From assembly GCA_000092065.1 (NCBI GenBank), contig CP000591.1: DNA of 64,000 nt; one strand, written 5' to 3'. Positions within the stretch are counted from its first letter, which is position 1. The number at the start of each line of letters is the position of its first letter. The notes beneath the pieces were generated by a model. That model was not told the origin of the DNA. It did no database searches and saw only the letters and a program-made list of their open reading frames with translations. Origin of the DNA: Ostreococcus lucimarinus (lineage: Eukaryota). The position numbers and the translations under genes were made by a program. Positions 1-50,885 of the stretch are shown here, piece after piece.

Positions 1-3000
1 GACGAACGCCGCCGGCGACGGCGCGGCGAGCGGCGATACGCAGTGCGACCACACTATTTGTCCGGCGAACATGCACGTCGTTGGTCACGTGTGCACGCCG
101 TGTCCACCGGGTATGAACCACCCAGGTGGCGACGACGCTTTTTTCGGCGACACGTCGTGCAGCGCCATTCTCTGCCAGTCGAATCAGCGCGTGCTGGGTC
201 ACGCGTGCGTCAGCTGTCCGCCCGGGACGACGAACGATGCGGACGACGACGCCTCGGGTGGCGACACGCAGTGCGATCCGGTCATCTGCGGAGCGCACAT
301 GCGCGTGCAAGATCACAACTGCGTGCAGTGCGTCGCCGGTAAGGAGAACGAAGCCGGCGACGACGCCTCACAAAGTAACACCGAGTGCGACGCCGTCATT
401 TGCGAGCCGAATCATCACGTGGCGGGCAATGTGTGCACGGCGTGTCCCGCCGGTCACGCGCACGCCGGCGGCGACGTGCAGCACGGCCCTGATACGTCGT
501 GCGACGAAGTGCTTTGCCACACGAACGAGCGCGTTCTCGGCCACCAGTGCGTGGCGTGTCCTCCGGGCTCGACGAACGCCGCCGGCGACGGCGCGGCGAG
601 CGGCGATACGCAGTGCGACCACACTATTTGTCCGGCGAACACGCACGTCGTTGGTCACGTGTGCACGCCGTGTCCACCGGGTATGAACCACCCAGGTGGC
701 GACGACGCTTTTTTCGGCGACACGTCGTGCAGCGCCATTCTCTGCCAGTCGAATCAGCGCGTGCTGGGTCACGCGTGCGTCAGCTGTCCGCCCGGGACGA
801 CGAACGATGCGGACGACGACGCCTCGGGTGGCGACACGCAGTGTGATCCGGTCATCTGCGGAGCGCACATGCGCGTGCAAGATCACAACTGCGTGCAGTG
901 CGTCGCCGGTAAGGAGAACGAAGCCGGTGACGACGCCTCACAAAGTAACACCGAGTGCGACGCCGTCATTTGCGAGCCGAATCATCACGTGGCGGGCAAT
1001 GTGTGCACGGCGTGTCCCGCCGGTCACGCGCACGCCGGCGGCGACGTGCAGCACGGCCCTGATACGTCGTGCGACGAAGTGCTTTGCCACACGAACGAGC
1101 GCGTTCTCGGCCACCAGTGCGTGGCGTGTCCTCCGGGCTCGACGAACGCCGCCGGCGACGGCGCGGCGAGCGGCGATACACAGTGCGACCACACTATTTG
1201 TCCGGCGAACACGCACGTCGTTGGTCACGTGTGCACGCCGTGCGCGCCGGGTCGTGACCACCCAGGTGGCGACGATGCGACTCTCGGCGACACGTCGTGC
1301 AGTGCCATCATGTGCGGGCCCAACCAGCACGTCGTGAGCCACGCTTGCACGGTGTGTCCAGCAGGAATGGTTAACGATGCGAACGACGACGCTTCGGGTG
1401 GCGACACGCATTGCGATCCGATACTGTGTCCATCGAATCAACGCGTGCAGGGTCATACGTGTGTGCAATGTGCGCCCGGGAAGACCAACGCACCCAATGA
1501 TGATGCCTCTAGGGGCGACACTGAGTGCGATATTACGTACTGCGCCGCAAATCAGCGCGTACAGGGCCATCAATGTGTCGCGTGTGCGCCCGGCACGACG
1601 AACGATGCCGGCGATGACGCCTCGCAAGTCGACACGCAGTGCGCTCCGATCATTTGTGGCGCACACATGCGAGTTCAAAGTCACGCGTGCGTACAGTGCG
1701 TCCCGGGTCGCGAGAACCTGGCGGGTGACGACGCCTCCGGCCAAGATACACCCTGCGATGAAATCGTGTGCGAAGAGAACCACAAGGTCGTGAGCCACCA
1801 GTGCGTGGCGTGCCCCGCGGGGAAGATACACACGGCTGGCGATGTTGCTTCGGGGCCAGACACGTCTTGCGACGCGGTGACGTGTAGCACGAACGAGCGC
1901 GTTCAAGGCCACCAGTGCGTGGCGTGTCCGGCCGGCACGACAAACGACGGCGGCGACGACGCGTCGGGTGGCGACACGCAGTGCGATCCGGTCATTTGTC
2001 CAGCACAAACGCACGTACAAAACCACGTGTGTGAGGTGTGTCCTCCCGGTCATGCGCACCCAGGTGGTGACGACGCGTCTCAAGGCGACACGCAGTGCGA
2101 CGCAGTGATGTGTGGGGCAAATTATCACGTGCAAGATCATCATTGCGTGCCATGTCCAACGGGTAAAGACAATCAAGCGAACGACAATGCCGCGGGCGCA
2201 GATACAGAGTGCGACATCATCTATTGTGCTGCCAATCAACGCGTACAAAACAACGTCTGTACCGCGTGTCCGCCCGGCACAATTAATGCAGGCGGTGATA
2301 ACGCGTTTGACCATGATACCACTTGCGATACCGTTTATTGCGGCGTGAATCAACACGTCTTTGAAAATGAATGCGTCCCTTGTCCGGCAGGGATGGTAAA
2401 CCCGTCGGGAGACGACGCCACCGGGCCCCGCACGTTTTGCGAGCCAATCATCTGCGGCGCGCACATGCACGTACAGAATCATCAGTGCGTGCAATGTGCT
2501 CCAGGTGATGAAAATTTGGCTGGCGATAGTGCCGCGCAACACGATACCACCTGCGACGAGGTCACTTGTTCTGCGAACGAGCACGTGGTGAGCCACCAAT
2601 GCACGGCGTGTCCCGCCGGTCACGCGCACGCTGGCGGCGACGTGCAGCACGGCCCTGATACGTCGTGCGACGAAGTGCTTTGCCACACGAACGAGCGCGT
2701 TCAAGGCCACCAGTGCGTGGCGTGTCCTCCGGGCTCGACGAACGCCGCCGGCGACGGCGCGGCAAGCGGCGATACGCAGTGCGACCACACTATTTGTCCG
2801 GCGAACACGCACGTCGTCGGTCACGTGTGCACGCCGTGCGCGCCAGGCTACGAACGACTTGCCGGCGACGACGCCACCGGTGGTGATACGCAATGCAGTG
2901 CTGTCTTGTGCGGCGCAAACATGCACGTGCAGAATAATTTGTGCGCGGCGTGCCCCGCTGGCACGACGAACGCCGCCGGCGACGACGCCTCGCGAGGAAA

Positions 3001-6000
3001 CTCGGAATGCGATCACACTATCTGCGAAGCGCACATGCGAGTGCAGAGTCATCAGTGCGTCGCGTGCATGGATGGCAAGGAAAATCTGGCGGGAGACGAT
3101 GCCGCTGGGGGGGACACACAATGCGATGAAGTCATCTGCGCTGCCGATCATCATGTATTAAACCATCAGTGTGTATCGTGCCCTTACGGTCACGCGCACG
3201 CCGGCGGCGACGTGCAGCACGGCCCTGATACGTCGTGCGACGAAGTGCTTTGCCACACGAACGAGCGCGTTCTCGGCCACCAGTGCGTGGCGTGTCCTCC
3301 GGGCTCAACGAACGCCGCCGGCGACGGCGCGGCGAGCGGCGATACGCAGTGCGACCACACTATTTGTCCGGCGAACACGCACGTCGTTGGTCACGTGTGC
3401 ACGCCGTGCGCGCCGGGTCGTGAACACCCAGCCGGCGACGACGCCACCGGTGGTGATACGCAATGCAGCGCCGTGATGTGCGGATCCAACATGCACGTCC
3501 AAAACCACGTGTGCACGGCGTGCCCGGCCGGGACGACGAACGCCGCCGGCGACGACGCTTCCGGAGCGAATACGCAGTGCGACCCAATCTTGTGTGGCGC
3601 GAACCAACACGTCTTGAATCATCAGTGCATGCAGTGCCCGCCCGGCACGCTCAATGACGCCAGCGATAGCGCTGCCGGTGGTAATACGCAGTGCGACGCC
3701 GTGCAGTGCGGCTGCAACCAACGCGTGCAGGGCCATCAATGTGTCACGTGTGCGCCCGGGACGACGAACGACGCCGGCGATGACGCCTCACAAGGCGATA
3801 CGCAGTGCGATCCGACCATCTGCGGCGCGCACATGCGAGTGCAAGATCACGCGTGCGTAGCGTGTGTGGACGGTCGAGAGAACCTGGCGGGTGACGACGC
3901 CTCACAAGGCAACACGCAGTGCGACGAAATCGTGTGCGAAGAGAACCACAAGGTCGTGAGCCACCAGTGCGTGGCGTGCCCCGCGGGGAAGATACACACG
4001 GCTGGCGATATTGCTTCGGGCCCAGACACGTCTTGCGACGCGGTGACGTGTAGCACGAACGAGCGCGTTCAAGGCCACCAGTGCGTGGCGTGTCCGGCTG
4101 GCACGACAAACGACGGCGGCGACGACGCGTCGGGTGGCGACACGCAGTGCGATATTACCCGGTGCACGGCGCACATGCACGTACAAAACCATGTGTGCGT
4201 GCAGTGCCCGGCCGGTAAAGAGAACGTCGCGGGTGATGACGCCTCTGGAGGTAACACGGAATGCGACGTCGTGCGATGCGGTGCCAACCAGCACGTCGTC
4301 GACCACGTGTGCACGGCGTGTCCGGCCGGGACGACGAACGATGAAGGCGACGACGCTTCGGGAGCGAACACGCAGTGCGATCCCGTCATCTGTGAATTGC
4401 ACATGCGAGTGCAGAATCATCAGTGCGTCGCGTGTGCGCCTGGCAAGGAGAATCTGGCGGGCGACGACGCCTCGCAAGGTAACACCGAGTGCGACGCCGT
4501 CATTTGTTCTGCGAACGAGCACGTGGTGAGCCACCAATGCACGGCGTGTCCCGCCGGTCACGCGCACGCCGGCGGCGACGTGCAGCACGGCCCTGATACG
4601 TCGTGCGACGAAGTGCTTTGCCACACGAACGAGCGCGTTCTCGGCCACCAGTGCGTGGCGTGTCCTCCGGGCTCAACGAACGCCGCCGGCGACGGCGCGG
4701 CGAGCGGCGATACGCAGTGCGACCACACTATTTGCCCTGCGAACACGCACGTCGTCGGTCACGCGTGCACGCCGTGTCCGCCAGGTCATGAACACCCGGC
4801 CGGCGACGACGCCACCGGTGGTGATACGCAATGCAGCGCCGTGTCGTGTGGGCCCAACATGCACGTCCAAAACCACGCGTGCACGGCGTGCCCGGCCGGG
4901 ACGACGAACGCCGCCGGCGACGACGCTTCTGGAGCGAATACGCAGTGCGATGCGACAATTTGCGCACACAACAAGCATGTTGTCAACCACGAGTGTGTTC
5001 CGTGTCCAGATGGCCATGAACACCCAGGCGTCGCTGATGCTTCTGGCTCCGATACTTCGTGTGATGTCACGCTGTGTGGCGCGAACCAACACGTCGTGAA
5101 TCATCAGTGCATGCAGTGCCCCCCCGGCACGCTCAATGACGCCAGCGATAGCGCTGCCGGTGGTAATACGCAGTGCGACACCGTGCAGTGCGGCGTCAAC
5201 CAACGCGTGCAGGGCCATCAATGTGTCACGTGTGCGCCCGGGACGACGAACGACGCCGGCGATGACGCCTCACAAGGCGATACGCAGTGCGATCCGACCA
5301 TCTGCGGCGCGCACATGCGAGTGCAAGATCACGCGTGCGTAGCGTGTGTGGACGGTCGAGAGAACCTGGCGGGTGACGACGCCTCACAAGGCAACACGCA
5401 GTGCGACGAAATCGTGTGCGAAGAGAACCACAAGGTCGTGAGCCACCAGTGCGTGGCGTGCCCCGCGGGGAAGATACACACGGCTGGCGATATTGCTTCG
5501 GGCCCAGACACGTCTTGCGACGCGGTGACGTGTAGCACGAACGAGCGCGTTCAAGGCCACCAGTGCGTGGCGTGTCCGGCTGGCACGACAAACGACGGCG
5601 GCGACGACGCGTCGGGTGGCGACACGCAGTGCGATATTACCCGGTGCACGGCGCACATGCACGTACAAAACCATGTGTGCGTGCAGTGCCCGGCCGGTAA
5701 AGAGAACGTCGCGGGTGATGACGCCTCTGGAGGTAACACGGAATGCGACGTCGTGCGATGCGGTGCCAACCAGCACGTCGTCGACCACGTGTGCACGGCG
5801 TGTCCGGCCGGGACGACGAACGATGAAGGCGACGACGCTTCGGGAGCGAACACGCAGTGCGATCCCGTCATCTGTGAATTGCACATGCGAGTGCAGAATC
5901 ATCAGTGCGTCGCGTGTGCGCCTGGCAAGGAGAACGAAGCCGGCGACGACGCCTCGCAAGGTAACACCGAGTGCGACGCCGTCATTTGTTCTGCGAACGA

Positions 6001-8278
6001 GCACGTGGTGAGCCACCAATGCACGGCGTGTCCCGCCGGTCACGCGCACGCCGGCGGCGACGTGCAGCACGGCCCTGATACGTCGTGCGACGAAGTGCTT
6101 TGCCACACGAACGAGCGCGTTCTCGGCCACCAGTGCGTGGCGTGTCCTCCGGGCTCAACGAACGCCGCCGGTGACGGCGCGGCGAGCGGCGATACGCAGT
6201 GCGACCACACTATTTGCCCTGCGAACACGCACGTCGTCGGTCACGCGTGCACGCCGTGTCCGCCAGGTCATGAACACCCGGCCGGCGACGACGCCACCGG
6301 TGGTGATACGCAATGCAGCGCCGTGATGTGCGGATCCAACATGCACGTCCAAAACCACGTGTGCACGGCGTGCCCGGCCGGGACGACGAACGCCGCCGGC
6401 GACGACGCTTCTGGAGCGAATACGCAGTGTGATGTCACGCTGTGCGGCGCGAACCAACACGTCGTGAATCATCAGTGCATGCAGTGCCCGCCCGGCACGC
6501 TCAATGACGCCAGCGATAGCGCTGCCGGTGGTAATACGCAGTGCGACGCCGTGCAGTGCGGCTGCAACCAACGCGTGCAGGGCCATCAATGTGTCACGTG
6601 TGCGCCCGGGACGACGAACGACGCCGGCGATGACGCCTCACAAGGCGATACGCAGTGCGATCCGACCATCTGCGGCGCGCACATGCGAGTGCAAGATCAC
6701 GCGTGCGTAGCGTGTGTGGACGGTCGAGAGAACCTGGCGGGTGACGACGCCTCACAAGGCAACACGCAGTGCGACGAAATCGTGTGCGAAGAGAACCACA
6801 AGGTCGTGAGCCACCAGTGCGTGGCGTGCCCCGCGGGGAAGATACACACGGCTGGCGATATTGCTTCGGGCCCAGACACGTCTTGCGACGCGGTGACGTG
6901 TAGCACGAACGAGCGCGTTCAAGGCCACCAGTGCGTGGCGTGTCCGGCTGGCACGACAAACGACGGCGGCGACGACGCGTCGGGTGGCGACACGCAGTGC
7001 GATATTACCCGGTGCACGGCGCACATGCACGTACAAAACCATGTGTGCGTGCAGTGCCCGGCCGGTAAAGAGAACGTCGCGGGTGATGACGCCTCTGGAG
7101 GTAACACGGAATGCGACGTCGTGCGATGCGGTGCCAACCAGCACGTCGTCGACCACGTGTGCACGGCGTGTCCGGCCGGGACGACGAACGATGAAGGCGA
7201 CGACGCTTCGGGAGCGAACACGCAGTGCGATCCCGTCATCTGTGAATTGCACATGCGAGTGCAGAATCATCAGTGCGTCGCGTGTGCGCCTGGCAAGGAG
7301 AACGAAGCCGGCGACGACGCCTCGCAAGGTAACACCGAGTGCGACGCCGTCATTTGTTCTGCGAACGAGCACGTGGTGAGCCACCAATGCACGGCGTGTC
7401 CCGCCGGTCACGCGCACGCTGGCGGCGACGTGCAGCACGGCCCTGATACGTCGTGCGACGAAGTGCTGTGCCACACGAACGAGCGCGTTCTCGGCCACCA
7501 GTGCGTGGCGTGTCCTCCGGGCTCAACGAACGCCGCCGGCGACGGCGCGGCGAGCGGCGATACGCAGTGCGACCACACCATTTGCCCTGCGAACACGCAC
7601 GTCGTCGGTCACGCGTGCACGCCGTGTCCGCCAGGTCATGAACACCCGGCCGGCGACGACGCCACCGGTGGTGATACGCAATGCAGCGCCGTGTCGTGCG
7701 GGCCCAACATGCACGTCCAAAACCACGTGTGCACGGCGTGCCCGGCCGGGACGTGGAACGATGAAGGCGATGACGCTTCCGGTGCGAACACGCAGTGCGA
7801 TCCGGTCATCTGTGAAGTGCACATGCGAGTGCACGATCACGCGTGCGTTGCGTGTGCGCCTGGCAAGGAGAACGAAGCCGGCGACGACGCCTCGCAAGGT
7901 AACACCGAGTGCGACGCCGTCATTTGCGAGCCGAATCATCACGTGGCGGGCAATGTGTGCACGGCGTGTCCCGCCGGTCACGCGCACGCCGGCGGCGACG
8001 TGCAGCACGGCCCTGATACGTCGTGCGACGAAGTGCTTTGCCACACGAACGAGCGCGTTCAAGACCACCAGTGCGTGGCGTGTCCTCCGGGCTCGACGAA
8101 CGCCGCCGGCGACGGCGTGGCAAGCGGCAATACGCAGTGCGACAGCACTATTTGCGGGGCGAACAGGTACGTATCAAACCATGTGTGCGTGCTTTGCCCT
8201 TACCAACACTATCGCGCCGCCGGCGACGACGCCACCGGTCCCGACACGGCATGTATACGATATTACGGTCTCGGATAG
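1..8278 (+). CDS. Giant secreted/surface-type cysteine-rich tandem-repeat protein. Ephrin-receptor-like / TNFR-like 'CxxCPxG' repeats, about 72 units of 38 aa. 5'-truncated by the window edge.
   Basis: The frame is open from nt 2 and the ORF track shows 2,735 aa. nt 1-60 repeat nt 570-629, so the gene continues upstream. The unit is C-x2-C-P-x-G-x5-GDDA-x-GDT-x-C-x4-C-x9, 114 nt long. Stop at 8278, followed by an AT-rich 3' region. Confidence 0.8.
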   Translation, partial: TNAAGDGAASGDTQCDHTICPANMHVVGHVCTPCPPGMNHPGGDDAFFGDTSCSAILCQSNQRVLGHACVSCPPGTTNDADDDASGGDTQCDPVICGAHMRVQDHNCVQCVAGKENEAGDDASQSNTECDAVICEPNHHVAGNVCTACPAGHAHAGGDVQHGPDTSCDEVLCHTNERVLGHQCVACPPGSTNAAGDGAASGDTQCDHTICPANTHVVGHVCTPCPPGMNHPGGDDAFFGDTSCSAILCQSNQRVLGHACVSCPPGTTNDADDDASGGDTQCDPVICGAHMRVQDHNCVQCVAGKENEAGDDASQSNTECDAVICEPNHHVAGNVCTACPAGHAHAGGDVQHGPDTSCDEVLCHTNERVLGHQCVACPPGSTNAAGDGAASGDTQCDHTICPANTHVVGHVCTPCAPGRDHPGGDDATLGDTSCSAIMCGPNQHVVSHACTVCPAGMVNDANDDASGGDTHCDPILCPSNQRVQGHTCVQCAPGKTNAPNDDASRGDTECDITYCAANQRVQGHQCVACAPGTTNDAGDDASQVDTQCAPIICGAHMRVQSHACVQCVPGRENLAGDDASGQDTPCDEIVCEENHKVVSHQCVACPAGKIHTAGDVASGPDTSCDAVTCSTNERVQGHQCVACPAGTTNDGGDDASGGDTQCDPVICPAQTHVQNHVCEVCPPGHAHPGGDDASQGDTQCDAVMCGANYHVQDHHCVPCPTGKDNQANDNAAGADTECDIIYCAANQRVQNNVCTACPPGTINAGGDNAFDHDTTCDTVYCGVNQHVFENECVPCPAGMVNPSGDDATGPRTFCEPIICGAHMHVQNHQCVQCAPGDENLAGDSAAQHDTTCDEVTCSANEHVVSHQCTACPAGHAHAGGDVQHGPDTSCDEVLCHTNERVQGHQCVACPPGSTNAAGDGAASGDTQCDHTICPANTHVVGHVCTPCAPGYERLAGDDATGGDTQCSAVLCGANMHVQNNLCAACPAGTTNAAGDDASRGNSECDHTICEAHMRVQSHQCVACMDGKENLAGDDAAGGDTQCDEVICAADHHVLNHQCVSCPYGHAHAGGDVQHGPDTSCDEVLCHTNERVLGHQCVACPPGSTNAAGDGAASGDTQCDHTICPANTHVVGHVCTPCAPGREHPAGDDATGGDTQCSAVMCGSNMHVQNHVCTACPAGTTNAAGDDASGANTQCDPILCGANQHVLNHQCMQCPPGTLNDASDSAAGGNTQCDAVQCGCNQRVQGHQCVTCAPGTTNDAGDDASQGDTQCDPTICGAHMRVQDHACVACVDGRENLAGDDASQGNTQCDEIVCEENHKVVSHQCVACPAGKIHTAGDIASGPDTSCDAVTCSTNERVQGHQCVACPAGTTNDGGDDASGGDTQCDITRCTAHMHVQNHVCVQCPAGKENVAGDDASGGNTECDVVRCGANQHVVDHVCTACPAGTTNDEGDDASGANTQCDPVICELHMRVQNHQCVACAPGKENLAGDDASQGNTECDAVICSANEHVVSHQCTACPAGHAHAGGDVQHGPDTSCDEVLCHTNERVLGHQCVACPPGSTNAAGDGAASGDTQCDHTICPANTHVVGHACTPCPPGHEHPAGDDATGGDTQCSAVSCGPNMHVQNHACTACPAGTTNAAGDDASGANTQCDATICAHNKHVVNHECVPCPDGHEHPGVADASGSDTSCDVTLCGANQHVVNHQCMQCPPGTLNDASDSAAGGNTQCDTVQCGVNQRVQGHQCVTCAPGTTNDAGDDASQGDTQCDPTICGAHMRVQDHACVACVDGRENLAGDDASQGNTQCDEIVCEENHKVVSHQCVACPAGKIHTAGDIASGPDTSCDAVTCSTNERVQGHQCVACPAGTTNDGGDDASGGDTQCDITRCTAHMHVQNHVCVQCPAGKENVAGDDASGGNTECDVVRCGANQHVVDHVCTACPAGTTNDEGDDASGANTQCDPVICELHMRVQNHQCVACAPGKENEAGDDASQGNTECDAVICSANEHVVSHQCTACPAGHAHAGGDVQHGPDTSCDEVLCHTNERVLGHQCVACPPGSTNAAGDGAASGDTQCDHTICPANTHVVGHACTPCPPGHEHPAGDDATGGDTQCSAVMCGSNMHVQNHVCTACPAGTTNAAGDDASGANTQCDVTLCGANQHVVNHQCMQCPPGTLNDASDSAAGGNTQCDAVQCGCNQRVQGHQCVTCAPGTTNDAGDDASQGDTQCDPTICGAHMRVQDHACVACVDGRENLAGDDASQGNTQCDEIVCEENHKVVSHQCVACPAGKIHTAGDIASGPDTSCDAVTCSTNERVQGHQCVACPAGTTNDGGDDASGGDTQCDITRCTAHMHVQNHVCVQCPAGKENVAGDDASGGNTECDVVRCGANQHVVDHVCTACPAGTTNDEGDDASGANTQCDPVICELHMRVQNHQCVACAPGKENEAGDDASQGNTECDAVICSANEHVVSHQCTACPAGHAHAGGDVQHGPDTSCDEVLCHTNERVLGHQCVACPPGSTNAAGDGAASGDTQCDHTICPANTHVVGHACTPCPPGHEHPAGDDATGGDTQCSAVSCGPNMHVQNHVCTACPAGTWNDEGDDASGANTQCDPVICEVHMRVHDHACVACAPGKENEAGDDASQGNTECDAVICEPNHHVAGNVCTACPAGHAHAGGDVQHGPDTSCDEVLCHTNERVQDHQCVACPPGSTNAAGDGVASGNTQCDSTICGANRYVSNHVCVLCPYQHYRAAGDDATGPDTACIRYYGLG

Positions 8279-8314
8279 ATGTTTAATTTTTAATAATACG
8301 TCCTAATAATCGAC

Positions 8315-8372
<58 letters not shown>

Positions 8373-8407
8373 GGCGCGCATCAAAACGCGACGCTCGAGT
8401 CGACGCG

Positions 8408-8911
8408 ATGCGCGCGTCCGCGCGCGTCGCGAGCGCGCGCGCGGTCGTGAAGCGCGAGCGCGACGCGCGATCGACGCGCGCGCGCGCGTTCGTGCCGCCC
8501 ATCGTCCCGAATCCGCGCCAGGGCGACGACGACGCGAATGCTGACGCGGCACCGACGCTGCCGAACATCGAACGCGCGCTGGCGCCGCACGGATGGGCGA
8601 TCGGCGCCGAGCGAGGGTACGACGACACGCCGCACGCGTTCAAGATATTCAAAGTGCGCGATGGGCATCACACGCTGGAACAGCTGCAAGAGGCGCTGTA
8701 CGTGAGCGACGAACGAGGGTGTCGGATACGACGCGAGACGCAGTCGTTGTTTTACATGTGCTGCGATGGCGTGCGGTGTCGGTTGAACGAGGGGAAGAAA
8801 GAGATCGTGGTGGAGATGCCGTGTGATTTGGACAGCGTGGGAGCGTACGTGGCGAAGGCCAAGGTGATTGAGGACATCATTAAGAGTTCTCAAAAGAAGA
8901 GGGCTTCGTGA
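8408..8911 (+). CDS. Hypothetical small protein (167 aa) with an Arg/Ala-rich presequence-like N-terminus.
   Basis: ATG at 8408. nt 8580-8911 look coding, with mixed codons and K/E/D-rich sequence. It lies between the convergent 3' ends of the giant gene and BRCA2. I recognise no domain. Confidence 0.35.
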   Translation: MRASARVASARAVVKRERDARSTRARAFVPPIVPNPRQGDDDANADAAPTLPNIERALAPHGWAIGAERGYDDTPHAFKIFKVRDGHHTLEQLQEALYVSDERGCRIRRETQSLFYMCCDGVRCRLNEGKKEIVVEMPCDLDSVGAYVAKAKVIEDIIKSSQKKRAS

Positions 8912-38617: not shown

Positions 38618-40825
38618 TCAGGACGCGTTCAGGATGGACTGTCGAAGTTGCGAAATCACCTGCGCGGGATTGGCGGCGCCGAAGACGGCGCTGCCGGCGA
38701 CGAGGACGTTGGCGCCGGCGCGCGCGCAGAGCTCGGCGGTGCTCGGATTGACGCCGCCGTCCATTTGAATGTCCAAGTCTGGATACCTCGCGCGGAGGGC
38801 GGAGACTTTGTCACACACCGCGGGGTTGAACTTTTGACCACCGAACCCGGGTTCGACGGACAAGCACAGGACCATGTCGACGAGACCGGCGTCGACGAGC
38901 TCGTACACGCCGCCGTCTTCGTCGCACGGCGTGGACGGTTTGCACGCCACGGCGGCGCGCATGCCGAGCGATCGAATGGTTTTGCAGAGCTCCTCTGCGG
39001 CGGTACCGCTGACAACTTCGATATGGAACGTCACGCTCGACGCACCGGCGGCGGCGAGCGCGGGAACGAGCGTCGCAGGATTGCTCACGCTCAAGTGACA
39101 ATCGAAGAACGCGTCGCGCGGGCCGACGCGTTTCGCCAAATCCGCCACCACGGGAGGACCGATGGTCAAATTAGGGACGAAATGTCCGTCCATGATGTCG
39201 ACGTGCAACCAATCAGCGCCTTCGTCGAGCATGCGGTTGACTTCGGAGGCTAAAGCGCCTTGGTCGGCCGCCAACAGTGACGGGCAAACGATGGCGCGTT
39301 TGGTCGTCGAAACCGCGGGCGCTCGGCGCGCGCCCCACGTCTCGCGGAATGACGGATATAGTCGTAGGTACGCGGCGTACACGTCGGCATACGCTGCGTG
39401 TGCCTCTGGGTTCGGACTGATGACGCGCGATTTGCGAACCATCGCCGCGACGGCTTCGCGCACGCTTCCAAACAACCCCGCGCCGAAGGCGGCGAGTATT
39501 GCGCAACCGAGCGCGGGGGCGTCCGAACACTCGGTGACGACATGCGGCACTCCCGTGACGTCGGCGTGAATCTGTAACCAAAGTTCGCTTCGCGTCGCCC
39601 CGCCGGCGATGACGACTTCCTTCGGTTCGTACCCTCCGCGGGTCATGGTTTCAAAAATCAATCGCGTACCGCAACACACGCCCTCCAAAATCGCACGGAA
39701 CACGTGCGCTTTCGAGTGCTTGAGCGTGAGACCGGAGATCACTCCGCGGCTGAGTGCGTCCACGTGCGGGGTTCGGTTGCCTTGAAAGTGGTCGAGCGCG
39801 ACGACGCCTTCGCATCCAGGCGGGATCGCGCTCGCTTCGCGGTTCATGTCGTCGTAAAACGAATCGCCGCCGCCGCATAAATTCTTAAACCAATTCACCA
39901 CGGACCCCGTGCTCGTCTGACCACCCTCGACGACGAACGGCGCGCTCTCCACGAGCGCGTTTCTATACGTCCCGAAGATACCCTTCGCGTGAAATTCCTC
40001 CTCCGCGACGCCCAAGTGCAGGTGCGACGAGCCCGTGATCAGCGCTAACTGCCCCGGTTCGATGACTCCCAGCCCGACCATTCCCACGAACGCGTCCGCG
40101 CCTCCCTGAATCACCTTCGTGCCCTCGAGCAACCCGCACGCCGCCGCCGCTCGTGCCGTCATCCCGCCCACCGCCGCGCCCATCGGTAATATCTCCTTCG
40201 GCCACTTTTCCACCAACTCCGCGCACCCAAGCTTTTCTAACATCGTCATCGGCGGTCTCCCGTCGCCGTCGAAGTGCCACCGCACGCCGACGTTGTTCAT
40301 CGACCCGCAGTACCGTCCCGTGAGCCACAGGTTTACGTAATCCTGATACTCGCAAATCATCGTCGCTCTGTCGTACCGCTCCCGGTCGTTTCGCTTCAGC
40401 CACAGCGCCTTGGGCACCATCCACTCCGCGCTCACCGGTCCCGCGCCCGCGCAGTTGACGCGAAGCGCGTCGTCTTCCGTCTCGACGCACGCCGTCGCCT
40501 CGTCGCTCGCGCGGACGTCCATCCACAGCACGCTGTTCCCGATCGCGTCGCCGCGCGCGTCGAGCGCGACGACCGAGCAGCACGTCGTGTCGACGCACAC
40601 GGCCGCGACGTCGCGCGCGTCGACGCCGCACAGGCGCCGCGCCTCGGCGATGGCGGTCGCGAGCCCGTCGAGCCACGACGCGGGGACTTGCTCGGCGCGA
40701 CCGGGCGCGGGGTGCGAGGTGGCGTACGGGACGTCGGCGAACGCGAGCGGGACGCCGGTGAGGGTGAAGACACCGGCGCGGATGCCGGTGGTGCCGCCGT
40801 CGACGCCGACGACGACGGGAGGCAT
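38618..40825 (-). CDS. Bifunctional fusion: FGGY-family carbohydrate kinase (ribulokinase/xylulokinase-like) fused to ribulose-phosphate 3-epimerase.
   Basis: One uninterrupted 735-aa ORF. N-terminal FGGY: VVGVDGGTTGIRAGVF...CVDTTCCSVVAL...AGGATRSELWLQIHADVTGVPHVV. C-terminal RPE: SLLAADQGALASEVNRMLDEGADWLHVDIMDGHFVPNLTIGPPVV...DCHLSVSNP...LCLSVEPGFGGQKF...MDGGVNPST. ATG at 40825. Confidence 0.8.
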   Translation of the reverse strand: MPPVVVGVDGGTTGIRAGVFTLTGVPLAFADVPYATSHPAPGRAEQVPASWLDGLATAIAEARRLCGVDARDVAAVCVDTTCCSVVALDARGDAIGNSVLWMDVRASDEATACVETEDDALRVNCAGAGPVSAEWMVPKALWLKRNDRERYDRATMICEYQDYVNLWLTGRYCGSMNNVGVRWHFDGDGRPPMTMLEKLGCAELVEKWPKEILPMGAAVGGMTARAAAACGLLEGTKVIQGGADAFVGMVGLGVIEPGQLALITGSSHLHLGVAEEEFHAKGIFGTYRNALVESAPFVVEGGQTSTGSVVNWFKNLCGGGDSFYDDMNREASAIPPGCEGVVALDHFQGNRTPHVDALSRGVISGLTLKHSKAHVFRAILEGVCCGTRLIFETMTRGGYEPKEVVIAGGATRSELWLQIHADVTGVPHVVTECSDAPALGCAILAAFGAGLFGSVREAVAAMVRKSRVISPNPEAHAAYADVYAAYLRLYPSFRETWGARRAPAVSTTKRAIVCPSLLAADQGALASEVNRMLDEGADWLHVDIMDGHFVPNLTIGPPVVADLAKRVGPRDAFFDCHLSVSNPATLVPALAAAGASSVTFHIEVVSGTAAEELCKTIRSLGMRAAVACKPSTPCDEDGGVYELVDAGLVDMVLCLSVEPGFGGQKFNPAVCDKVSALRARYPDLDIQMDGGVNPSTAELCARAGANVLVAGSAVFGAANPAQVISQLRQSILNAS

Positions 40826-47528: not shown

Positions 47529-50500
47529 TCACGGAGCGATGGTGTCTAAAGCCATGTAGGTATCGCACCAGGCGGTGTGCAGGGCGCTCGGTTCCGTCGC
47601 GTCGCGAATCGGCGGTACGCCGCGGCCGCGATACGCCGCGCGCGTGAGCTTTTCCACTTCCTCCGGCGGTCGTTCGTTCGCTAAGTTATCCCAATCGATG
47701 TCGCAGAGCAGCGCGGATCGCTTGACTAATGTGGCGTCGTGCATGCGGTCTTTTGGGTTGACCACGAGAAGCGCGCGAGCCAAGGCGACGGCTTTGGGAT
47801 CGGCGTCGCCGCGGAAGATCGTGGATAAATCGCACCGACAAATTGACTCGTACGTCTTGTGCGTGACTTTCATCCCGAACGGTGGCGTCCCGTTGAGTAA
47901 GTGCACGATGAACGTCCCGAGCGAAAACCAGTCCGCGCGTTCGTCGTGGCCGACGCCGCGAACGACTTCGGGCGCCATGTACGCCGCGGCGCCGCACGCC
48001 GTAAACGTCTTTCCGGGCGTGTCGTCCGTCACCGCGAGATGTTTAGCGAAGCGGAAGTCAGTCAACCGCAGCGCGCCGTGCTGATCGATCGTCATCGTCT
48101 CCGGGTCCATTCCTCGGAATACGATGTCCATGGCGTGGACGTACTCGAACACGAGCGTAAACGCGGCGACGTAGTACTTGACGACTTCGGGCTTGGAGCC
48201 GCCGCCGCACGCGATGACAGCTTCGAGCGCACATCTCGGCGCGAATGGGTACGGAATGGAGATGAAACTCGAGTCTTTCGATGGGATGGCGGGTATGGGA
48301 ATGAATGCCGGCGGCTTGGCTGAGCCCGCCGTGAGCATTGTGATGATGGCGCGCTCGCGCAACACGCCCTCGACTCGCGCGAGCGATTCTGTTCTCGCGA
48401 GCGAGATCTGCACCGTCGCCTCCTTAGACGCCCCCTTCGTTTCGCGCAAGTGACCGAGCAACGTCATGTACAGCGCCTCACGCGAGGCTCGCTCGTCGTC
48501 CCCGAAACTTAATCGCCGCTCGTGCGGATCTAAAGCGCGCTGGGGCGATCGGATGCGTTCCATCGACGACGATCGCTCGAGAGTGGCGCTCGACGTCCGC
48601 ACGATCGCCTCGGTTCCGGTGACGTTTGTTATATCGGTCAGCTTAACGCGCCATACCTCAACGTCGTCGCTGATGGCTTGAATATTAGTCGCACACGGCG
48701 CGCCACTTCTCGAGAGAAGCGCGCGTTCACCAAAATATTGCCCACTCGTCAACTTGAGCACCACCCTCGGCGTCTCGCTCTCGTCGCGCGCATTCGCACG
48801 CACGGTGCACGACACATCCCCCCTACTGATGATGTACATAGCATTTATCTGCTGTCCCTGACGCGCGATGAGCTCGCTTGTTTGAGCCTTTACGAGAGAT
48901 TTCCCGCGCTTATCGACGATGTTCGTGGCGATTCGGCGCAAGTCGCTGATGCTCACGGCTTTCAGCGCGTCCACGCCGCGCAGCGCGCTCGTGAGCGTGT
49001 TTACGCTCGGCTCGTCGTCCTCGCGCATGAGACGCGTGTAAGTGGCGAAGTCAAGCACCCAGAGGACCACGTCACTGTTCGCGGTGACGGTCTCGTGCGG
49101 ATTTTGGGCGTGCGCCATGCACTGTTCGTTGAAGCACATTCTGTCGCCGCCTTTGCCATACGTTCGCACCTTGACGGCTTCCTTCTTCTCCGCATTCTCG
49201 TCTCCCTCGTTCTCGACCCACGCGACGTTGTCGCGCCCCGTGAGAGTGCCACTCTGTACGGCATAAAGCGCACGCAGCGAATACTTGTCGTTTTGCGTCA
49301 CGACGACATCGCCGTCGTACACTCTTTTCCTGTACATCGCCTCCGCGACTTCGTTCAAAATCGCATCCGAGACGCCGATAAATAAGAATGATTGCTTGAG
49401 AATCGATAATAACGCCGATTTGTCCTCCGCGGTGGCGATGGACAGATCTCCCATCTGCTCTTCCAGTGAACCTCTCGTGTTGAACGAGATATCGGACGGT
49501 AAACCGTAAGGGTGCACCACGCGATAACTGCGGCGCGTTTGCATGGTGAACGACGGCACGACGCGACGTCGAGGTCTCGCCGACGTTGGGAACGGCGACG
49601 AGAGCTGGTTCGCGCGATCGGGAAAGTTGAACAGCGCACTGACGCTCACGGACTTTCTCGGCGTGACGGGATCGGGATCGGGATGGGTTTCGTCCGGGAA
49701 GTCTTCAATCAAGATGACGATGACGGTGATGTCGTCCGTGCGCGTCTCGTATTGAAGCCAGAGCTTGTACGATTCCACCACGAGCGCGATTGCGCTCTGC
49801 TGTGGATCGCTCGTCGCCATCGCGGCTTTGATCACGCTTGTGGACGGAATGAATTCGAAAACTCCATCTGAAGCGATCACGATCGCCTTCGTGTCTTTGT
49901 TCAAGCGCACGCGCTCGATTTCCGGCGTCGCGACGACGCCGATGCGCTCGGCGACGGCGTCGCCTATGGAACGAGTAAACGCCGTGCCAGGATACATCCC
50001 ATTCTTCGCCCACAGTCGCGGGGGATCGCCATCGTCGTCTTGCTCCGTCCCCCAACACTGCACGGTGGGATCTTTGAACCCCTCGAGCTGATCGAGCGTC
50101 ATCACGCGCGCGCCCGCCTTCTTCACCCGCTCGCACTCATCCGCGCGAAACGGCGTCTGATCCGAACTCAAATCCACCGTCTCCACCACAACCTCTCCCT
50201 TATCGTCCGCCTTCTCTATCCCCATCGTCGCCCGCGAGTCCCCCACGTTTATCACGTACAAATCCCTCCCCTTCACGTGCGCGATGATCCCCGTCGTCCC
50301 GCTCAACGAATCGTCCACCTCGCTCCTTCGCAGCGCCTCGTTCGTCGTTCGAAACGCCTCCTCGTACCCTTTCGCGTCCCCAAACTCTCGCTTCGCCATC
50401 TCCATCGGCACTCTCATCGCCGCGAACCTCGCGCACTCCGTTCCAAACTCCCCGTGTCCGTCGAAGACGCCGAAGACGCACTCGTCGTCGCGATCTCCAA

Positions 50501-50885
50501 ATCTCGCCTCGCTCACGTGCGCGTCCTGGTTCGCCTTGCTCAGCGCCTCTGGGTAGTACCCTCGCTGCGAGCACGCCGCGTATCGCATCGCGTACGACTG
50601 CGCGCGACCGCGTTCGTCCGTGAACGCCACTCGGACCGTCTTCGCGCCCTTGACGCCGGCGAGACGGGCGTTGTATTGCTCCTGCGTCAGCGGGCCGCCG
50701 CGCAGGCGCACTTGGTACCGCACGGGGGCGTCGTCCGTCGGATCGACGCATTCGTCGTCGTCGCGCGCGCGCGCGCGATCGGCGACGGGACGAACGGGGC
50801 GCGCGCGCGATGGAGACGCGGGCGCGCGAGGCGCCGCGTCGCGCGCGGCGCTCGCGGCGTCCGCGGCGGAGGACGCGCATCCCAT
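47529..50885 (-). CDS. PP2C phosphatase, two cNMP-binding domains and a Ser/Thr protein kinase as one tri-domain protein, with an N-terminal MGC acylation motif.
   Basis: MGCASS start (ATG at 50885). PP2C: FGVFDGHGEFG...YVINVGDSRA...ASDGVFEF. cNMP-binding: FLFIGVSDAILNEVAEAM and FGERALL...APCATNIQA. Kinase: RLTDFRFAKHL...AAYMAPEVV...DWFSLGTFIVHLL. Same architecture as Arabidopsis At2g20050. Confidence 0.85.
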   Translation of the reverse strand: MGCASSAADAASAARDAAPRAPASPSRARPVRPVADRARARDDDECVDPTDDAPVRYQVRLRGGPLTQEQYNARLAGVKGAKTVRVAFTDERGRAQSYAMRYAACSQRGYYPEALSKANQDAHVSEARFGDRDDECVFGVFDGHGEFGTECARFAAMRVPMEMAKREFGDAKGYEEAFRTTNEALRRSEVDDSLSGTTGIIAHVKGRDLYVINVGDSRATMGIEKADDKGEVVVETVDLSSDQTPFRADECERVKKAGARVMTLDQLEGFKDPTVQCWGTEQDDDGDPPRLWAKNGMYPGTAFTRSIGDAVAERIGVVATPEIERVRLNKDTKAIVIASDGVFEFIPSTSVIKAAMATSDPQQSAIALVVESYKLWLQYETRTDDITVIVILIEDFPDETHPDPDPVTPRKSVSVSALFNFPDRANQLSSPFPTSARPRRRVVPSFTMQTRRSYRVVHPYGLPSDISFNTRGSLEEQMGDLSIATAEDKSALLSILKQSFLFIGVSDAILNEVAEAMYRKRVYDGDVVVTQNDKYSLRALYAVQSGTLTGRDNVAWVENEGDENAEKKEAVKVRTYGKGGDRMCFNEQCMAHAQNPHETVTANSDVVLWVLDFATYTRLMREDDEPSVNTLTSALRGVDALKAVSISDLRRIATNIVDKRGKSLVKAQTSELIARQGQQINAMYIISRGDVSCTVRANARDESETPRVVLKLTSGQYFGERALLSRSGAPCATNIQAISDDVEVWRVKLTDITNVTGTEAIVRTSSATLERSSSMERIRSPQRALDPHERRLSFGDDERASREALYMTLLGHLRETKGASKEATVQISLARTESLARVEGVLRERAIITMLTAGSAKPPAFIPIPAIPSKDSSFISIPYPFAPRCALEAVIACGGGSKPEVVKYYVAAFTLVFEYVHAMDIVFRGMDPETMTIDQHGALRLTDFRFAKHLAVTDDTPGKTFTACGAAAYMAPEVVRGVGHDERADWFSLGTFIVHLLNGTPPFGMKVTHKTYESICRCDLSTIFRGDADPKAVALARALLVVNPKDRMHDATLVKRSALLCDIDWDNLANERPPEEVEKLTRAAYRGRGVPPIRDATEPSALHTAWCDTYMALDTIAP

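Follow-up and report, generated by a model that had tools for sequence, protein, structure and literature searches.

Ostreococcus lucimarinus is one of the smallest free-living eukaryotes, and the start of a 64,000-nucleotide (nt) stretch of its genome (contig CP000591.1 of assembly GCA_000092065.1; hereafter the window, numbered from its first letter) holds the 3′ part of an unannotated giant gene for a predicted surface protein made of repeated 38-residue modules. Here we show that an old, diverged array of these modules was recently enlarged by whole modules: a 5-module block was duplicated on the 5′ side, and a block of 12 or 13 modules was triplicated, with a partial fourth copy, between positions 3194 and 7770. 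The recency of the block duplication follows from copies that are 98.1–99.1% identical, contain exact runs of 738–855 nt and have a synonymous divergence (dS) of 0.011–0.055, against saturation between module types elsewhere in the array. We interpret the locus, with a probability of about 0.8, as a coding higher-order repeat in the extracellular part of a membrane-anchored protein of at least about 3,100 residues, shaped by unequal recombination and gene conversion. Independent metagenome contigs confirm that the blocks, their private variants, an extra module and most module joins are real; doubt concerns the number of blocks, not their existence. Such a repeat is well known in kind and belongs to ordinary repeat evolution. 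What appears new, judged from sequence, is a giant, undescribed and lineage-restricted surface-rod gene, an unmodelled family of 38-residue modules and a near-identical tract, modules E and A, that punctuates the array.

Architecture of the array

A single frame is open on the plus strand from position 2 to a stop codon at 8276–8278; it is already open at the start of the window and ends in ...DTACIRYYGLG. Cut every 114 nt, this open reading frame (ORF) yields a register table with zero length change, in which 72.6 modules each measure exactly 114 nt or 38 amino acids (aa), that is, 72 full modules and a 22-aa tail. Four cysteines are invariant in every module (positions 15, 20, 31 and 34), as is Val26, and Gly37, Asp6, Thr13 and His29 are nearly so, within the consensus xNxAGDDASGGDTQC-DxVxC-xANxHVxxHxC-VAC-PPGx. 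A profile built on the module matches this frame alone and has no match past 8278, and further module copies elsewhere in the window were rejected on that ground. Long ORFs of up to 738 aa also occur antisense and in the other frames of 1–8300 (for example, 938–3154 on the minus strand); they recur with the blocks and look like by-products of stop-poor, GC-rich repeats, and we found nothing to show that those in 1–8300 are genes.

Clustering at 88% nucleotide identity resolves 31 module types, in the order ABCDE ABCDE A FGHIJKLMNOPQ EA RST EA UVWXJKYZab EA UcdWXJKYZab EA UVWXJKYZab EA UaDE e (Table 1); most module pairs are 50–65% identical in nucleotide sequence. When 1–8300 is compared with itself, the top identities fall at shifts of 2850, 1368, 570 and 1482 nt, at which 114-nt steps are 96–100% identical across 11–12 consecutive modules, over a background of 50–65%. 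The array is thus a higher-order repeat in the operational sense: adjoining monomers are clearly diverged, and head-to-tail blocks are far more alike than monomers (98.1–99.1% for the 12-module block, 98.5–100% for the 5-module block).

The 12-module block measures 1368 nt. Copies 1 and 3 differ at 26 of 1368 sites, and copy 2, once relieved of 114 nt, differs from copy 3 at 12 of 1368. High identity extends over 3175–4914 versus 6025–7764 between copies 1 and 3, over 5049–6402 versus 6417–7770 between copies 2 and 3, and, between copies 1 and 2, over 3175–3589 versus 4543–4957 and then, at a shift of 1482, over 3586–4964 versus 5068–6446. The longest exact runs are 855 nt (5197–6051 equals 6565–7419), 838 nt and 738 nt.

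These blocks had been proposed in a sequence-only reading of the window, which placed near-identical segments of about 1,368 bp at 3171, 4539 and 6021. The periodicity is the same as that of our block starts at 3194, 4562 and 6044, 23 nt out of phase, and the self-comparison that the sequence-only reading had called for recovers it at shifts of 1368, 1482 and 2850. The frame-shifted ORFs that it saw recurring are also there, at offsets of 1482 and 1368: 121 aa at 3744, 5226 and 6594; 248 aa at 3902, 5384 and 6752; and 111 aa at 4069, 5551 and 6919. The repeat region that it drew, 3171–7620, is real, but block similarity runs on to about 7770. Its shorter copies of the block (1-640, 454-1212, 2580-2830 and 7390-8120) do share E-A or E-A-U modules with the block but are not copies of the whole; the first two belong instead to the separate 570-nt, 5-module repeat at 2–1255, whose copies are 98.5–100% identical.

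Older layers are visible beneath the young blocks. Modules F-G-H-I-J-K are a diverged counterpart of U-V-W-X-J-K, at a dS of 0.45–1.2 from the young block. Classed by protein sequence, the modules run 12345 12345 ... 1216 345 34 345, which shows a 5-module ancestor nested in the 12-module block.

Table 1 Features of the repeat array, in window coordinates
Feature	Position	Strand	Basis
3′ part of the giant ORF	2..8278	+	Translation, register table, module profile
5-module repeat A-B-C-D-E (570 nt), two copies and one more A; first A cut by the window edge	2..1255	+	Shift 570: 98.5% identity, 1-685 versus 571-1255; module clustering
Twelve mostly single-copy older modules, F-Q	1256..2623	+	Clustering; same order in wild contigs L004 and L012
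E-A, then unique R-S-T: a diverged 5-module unit	2624..3193	+	Clustering, dS; also in L004 and L012
Block copy 1, E A U V W X J K Y Z a b, modules 28-39	3194..4561	+	Private variants V31 and b39 found in L006 and L012
Homogenized E+A tract, example (~200 nt)	3194..3400	+	Mismatch map, sharp 5′ boundary
Other E+A tract starts; module E alone at 7982	458, 1028, 2624, 4562, 6044, 7412		
Block copy 2, 13 modules, V replaced by c + d	4562..6043	+	Order copy 1 to E A U c d reproduced in L006 and L005
Extra 114 nt, in-frame peptide CDATICAHNKHVVNHECVPCPDGHEHPGVADASGSDTS	4945..5058	+	Best single 114-nt deletion; placement ambiguity 4 nt
Block copy 3, modules 53-64	6044..7411	+	Private variants V56 and b52 in wild contig L008
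Partial fourth block copy, E A U	7412..7753	+	Module order A U a D E e in L010 and L011
Terminal modules a-D-E-e and 22-aa tail	7754..8275	+	D, E and e 111-114/114 nt identical to L001, L010 and L011

The middle copy carries one additional module, as had been noticed from the sequence alone; the 38-aa peptide then given is the same insertion, 4 aa out of phase. Its best other in-register match in the window covers 72 of 114 nt, which is the background level, and a fresh duplicate of a neighbouring module was rejected for that reason; by its sequence, the extra module is an old and diverged one. Module V of copy 3 consists exactly of c[1–44] followed by d[45–114], c and d being 56% identical to each other with few bases in common at the junction. 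The difference in length could have originated either by a deletion in the 12-module copies or by an insertion into copy 2. We favour the 12-module form as the probable older state, since modules in the older F-G-H-I block are spaced as in that form, and since the peptide DPILC occurs both in module V of copy 1 and in module G.

Independent contigs and the number of copies

A 30-mer from module E retrieved nine metagenome contigs from the Joint Genome Institute (JGI), which were mapped module by module onto the window. In L004, L006, L008, L010, L011 and L012 the modules matched at 109–114 of 114 nt, and a single one fell below 111. Contig L004 spans window modules 10–30, L012 modules 17–35 and L006 modules 29–44, the last running in tandem from copy 1, private variants included, into the c- and d-bearing copy 2; L005 likewise joins the end of copy 1 in tandem to the c-d modules specific to copy 2. 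Copy-3 variants are found in L008. Both L010 and L011 hold modules 66–71, with L011 continuing into the downstream flank of the window and L010 departing from it at 8323. A 30-mer from the extra module had no match in a first metagenome scan, which is explained by a single-nucleotide polymorphism in the wild copies, since L006 and L005 hold c and d.

Beginning 45 nt past the stop codon, GC-rich simple repeats with a (GC)n run occupy 8322–8488. Two contigs, L007 and L010, match the window up to 8323 and then run into unrelated sequence of 2.9–3.7 kb, in which they are 99.8% identical to each other; the departure at the (GC)n tract is either a rearrangement breakpoint or a chimeric join.

How many copies there are is beyond the reach of short-read assemblies. 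Of the first 8300 nt, 4768 lie in non-unique 127-mers, and at least seven same-species contigs of 6–108 kb contain an apparently complete gene that has 5.5 modules and encodes about 551 aa; the hazard of assembly collapse flagged in the sequence-only reading is therefore well founded. Such contigs could instead be taken at face value. The natural array would then be much shorter than in the window, with the 5.5-module gene a common real allele and the giant array private to some strains, a possibility that we rate as the strongest of the alternatives while still thinking it the less probable account. The short-form contigs come from different samples and pipelines and cross the locus as N-term-u0-C*-D|E-e-stop, where assemblers usually break at such repeats instead of crossing them; one product (P0124) has a different E variant at the join; and the ortholog in the sister species (L002, 178–1878) is likewise recovered as a 566-aa gene of 6.4 modules in several contigs. 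However, the short-form join, D8|E70, falls exactly inside a 162-nt exact repeat common to modules 8–9 and 69–70, longer than the assembler k of 127, as a collapse would look; short-form L013 and long-form L011 are 100% identical over 2.5 kb downstream; and other wild-sample contigs carry, or break inside, long stretches of the array. Short and long forms did not separate as haplotype lineages, their flanks being 99.9–100% identical, and this mildly favours collapse over the alternative of a real recent deletion.

Two further contigs contain comparable joins, K16 to Y36 within a 54-nt common stretch (L009) and K35 to L17 within a 77-nt common stretch (L005). Each of them, like D8|E70, is either a shortcut taken by the assembler or a genuine outcome of unequal exchange. 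In a bolder reading, the gene would be a hypervariable length switch and all three joins real recombinant haplotypes, with wild alleles ranging from about 5.5 to more than 76 modules through frequent unequal exchange at E-A and J-K, and rod length under diversifying selection (for example, by prasinoviruses or grazers); such a gene would lie on an ordinary chromosome, not on one of the known outlier chromosomes. We consider this speculative, with a probability well below even. It is the only reading of greater interest, as it would mean extreme natural length polymorphism in a picoalgal surface protein; length variants that proved real in the wild would make the locus useful as a marker and a candidate source of surface variation in interactions with viruses and grazers.

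An artefact in the window itself, by which fewer copies were over-expanded or misordered, or alleles or strain variants were laid in tandem, seems to us improbable. The repeat content in 127-mers invites the suspicion, as do exact runs of up to 855 nt, which exceed a Sanger or Illumina read, and short-read contigs that give several conflicting versions of the locus. But each block has private variants (V31/b39; c+d; V56/b52), all three sets of which were recovered in independent metagenome contigs, and assemblers do not invent a diverged 114-nt module such as the one that L006 and L005 place after the end of copy 1.

For users of the genome, the practical consequence is that this gene cannot be assembled from short reads, and that the 551-aa 'complete' protein in public metagenome assemblies probably represents a collapsed version of one exceeding 3,100 aa.

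Age, homogenization and mechanism

Between module types, synonymous sites are saturated (mean proportions of differing synonymous and nonsynonymous sites, pS 0.67 and pN 0.32), and the ratio of nonsynonymous to synonymous divergence, dN/dS, is 0.14–0.26 between old modules, which together indicate an old array under purifying selection. For the scale of the block dS, a wild same-species contig from Tara Oceans (L001) is 99.78% identical to the window over the 10 kb downstream, a difference of 0.22%. Differences between block copies lie in clusters and are not scattered, in the pattern expected of conversion patches. Wild contigs hold fine mosaics of copy-specific variants, and L008 switches between sites 18 nt apart; k-mer assembly cannot produce switches this close together, and they show that copies still convert one another in nature.

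The most striking element is module E together with most of A. Eight places in the array carry these ~200 nt in near-identical form, the 5′ boundary being sharp, and pairwise differences among seven copies amount to 1–14 of 228 nt. The tract recurs every 5–14 modules, all block boundaries fall at it, and it stays near-identical even beside unique, saturated modules, such as those around R-S-T and L-Q. Compared with its ortholog in the sister species, E-A shows 45 differences in 228 nt, and 21 codons differ synonymously only; silent sites are therefore free to change, and the identity within the array reflects concerted evolution. Recent duplication or concerted evolution, suggested earlier from the near-identity of the segments, is thus borne out by the low block dS beside saturated older module types, by the clustered differences and by the homogenized tract.

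An old duplication kept near-identical by strong purifying selection is, by contrast, a highly improbable explanation of the blocks and was rejected. The protein is clearly constrained, as the dN/dS values show, and the N-terminal half of module E is protein-identical in the sister species. Yet the synonymous sites of the blocks are identical too, with 738–855 nt unchanged and a dS far below the pS of about 0.67 in saturated module pairs, and the 21 synonymous-only codons of the sister species speak against selection on silent sites of E-A.

The loop of module E is atypical, reading GDVQHGPDTSC in place of GDDASGxDTQC (window 458–571 and seven other E modules). Module E may have a specific function besides its role as a recombination tract.

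We propose that the array grew by out-of-register homologous recombination between paralogous modules, by way of unequal sister-chromatid or meiotic exchange or of replication-template switching. Pairing would take place mainly at the near-identical E-A tract, and both this tract and the block copies would be kept alike by gene conversion over short tracts. Every event would be a multiple of 114 nt, preserving the frame and the cysteine pattern, so that rod length would be the sole phenotype. On the surface of a cell that lacks a wall, the protein might act as a long fibril or spacer whose length depends on the number of repeats. In this interpretation the locus shows clearly, in coding sequence, how a repeat can grow block by block with a dedicated, homogenized pairing tract.

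Gene context and comparison with known systems

The N-terminus of the gene lies upstream of the window and was read (P0018) from contig L001, which has the same gene order and places an adenosine-deaminase-like gene upstream of the array gene. It comprises about 85 residues, an RRGRG motif, a 20-residue hydrophobic segment and a cysteine-containing domain of about 250 aa, followed by the modules. By the positive-inside rule, this arrangement would form a type II anchor, with a cytosolic N-terminus, one transmembrane helix, the ~250-aa domain and the repeat rod pointing outward from the cell. Among 5.8 billion proteins, the N-terminal domain occurs in only two clusters, those of this species and the sister species, at 57% identity. 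The N-terminal part had no match above cut-off in Pfam or NCBIfam, and AlphaFold2 on the extracellular N-terminal domain, with an alignment of two sequences, gave a predicted local distance difference test (pLDDT) score of 31, which is unusable. A literature search on this gene or module in Ostreococcus found nothing relevant. The sister-species ortholog begins with the same module order, u0-C-D-E-A-U, and ends in ...DTQCV*, after which come 6PF2K and other genes, not BRCA2. One member of the cluster of the picoalgal gene (the P0024 cluster), MAK95759.1, comes from a metagenome-assembled genome labelled 'Euryarchaeota archaeon'; it probably represents a mis-binned eukaryotic contig in an archaeal genome.

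For four modules, AlphaFold2 predicts a rod with a pLDDT of 96; the four invariant cysteines of each module would form two disulfides. The best fold matches, all with weak scores, are cysteine-rich domains (CRDs) of the tumour necrosis factor receptor (TNFR) superfamily, the CRD of EphA2, ELAPOR1 and a Chlamydomonas mastigoneme protein. By sequence, the modules had nothing above cut-off in Pfam or NCBIfam, and their profile had no match among PDB sequences. PF23091 (TNFR_ELAPOR1_6th) reached 14.1 bits, below its cut-off of 33.2; some homologues of the module carry precomputed matches to this family. PF00053 (laminin-type EGF, for epidermal growth factor) reached 16 bits, below its cut-off of 21, and the module has four cysteines where laminin-type EGF domains have eight. 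PF07699 (Ephrin_rec_like / GCC2_GCC3) and DUF4215 / Myxococcus cysteine-rich repeat (PF13948, TIGR02232) gave no match at E ≤ 1 in Pfam or NCBIfam, PF13948 being seen once only, as a co-occurring domain in homologue P0017.

The module itself is widespread, with 1310 clusters (50% identity) at E ≤ 1e-3, most of them with bacterial-type architectures and a few from protists. Its top-scoring homologues are mostly metagenomic, with FG-GAP_2, RCC1 and SUEL lectin domains, Myxococcota names and about 50% identity to the algal modules. The module may be either very old or have moved between bacteria and protists. That the array is a non-coding minisatellite or a foreign, bacterial insert, as those homologues and the long antisense ORFs could suggest, is highly improbable, because a single frame stays open through 8.3 kb, no module departs from the cysteine pattern, the predicted fold is confident, G+C content equals that of the flanks, the array is contiguous with eukaryotic genes such as BRCA2 and Toc75 in the window and in independent contigs, and the N-terminal part is eukaryote-specific, with a sister-species ortholog.

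Neighbouring ORFs in the window are eukaryotic and include BRCA2, a Toc75-like Omp85 protein, APC2 and MCM2, among others; the APC2 ORF matches XP_001420260.1 of O. lucimarinus CCE9901 at 100% identity. Further along, on the minus strand, a 735-aa ORF (38618–40825) fuses an FGGY-family sugar kinase to a ribulose-phosphate 3-epimerase, with the same 735-aa product on an independent Logan contig, and a 1118-aa ORF (47529–50885) contains a PP2C phosphatase, a cyclic-nucleotide-binding domain and a protein kinase domain.

In fold, the closest comparison is with TNFR and ephrin-receptor CRDs, ELAPOR1 (PF23091) and the SD domains of the Chlamydomonas mastigoneme protein MST1, which have been likened to the ephrin-receptor CRD (PMC10602792). 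Like these, the algal modules would be β-hairpin units of about 40 aa with two disulfides, stacked end to end into an extracellular rod; the algal module has no sequence-level membership, and it scores weakly in structural comparison. It also recurs more than 72 times as one module type, where the ectodomain of a TNF receptor has only a few CRDs. Nearer in sequence are bacterial and protist proteins (for example, P0001, P0004, P0061 and P0043) that share the pattern C-x4-C-x10-C-x2-C-x2-G-x-x-N-x-A-G-D-D-A-S-G-x-D-T-x-C at 45–55% identity. These differ in combining their modules, about 6–15 each in the five proteins read directly, with FG-GAP_2, RCC1, SUEL-lectin and further domains, and the algal N-terminal domain is confined to its two clusters.

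As a genomic object, the array resembles the megasatellites and compound minisatellites of Candida glabrata adhesin genes, the former defined by a tandem motif of 126–429 bp (Thierry et al. 2008, PMC2566889). These are long in-frame arrays, up to about 10 kb, in surface-protein genes, with gain and loss of whole motifs, several intermingled motif types and difficult assembly. The algal array is at least 8.2 kb long and in frame, its putative surface location being read from the signal-anchor-like N-terminus. Its motif of 114 nt falls below the megasatellite range as stated there, and only its blocks (570 and 1368 nt) are longer. It differs further in having a folded, putatively disulfide-knotted module in place of the Ser/Thr-rich low complexity described for the yeast, a two-level block structure and a green picoalga as host.

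In its organization the array parallels the higher-order repeats of centromeric α-satellite DNA, which originate by unequal crossing-over, are homogenized by conversion and include one-monomer indel variants. Here, too, monomers differ by 35–50%, multi-monomer blocks are 98–100% alike and a one-monomer indel is present; in contrast to α-satellite, the algal array is coding, under purifying selection and altered in codon-phased whole modules, with about three block copies. Among coding arrays, nebulin has super-repeats of 7 modules and titin of 7 or 11 domains, ancient and diverged. The algal gene shares with them a multi-module block as the unit of duplication and a ruler-like rod, but its module fold is unrelated and its blocks are as young as variation within the species.

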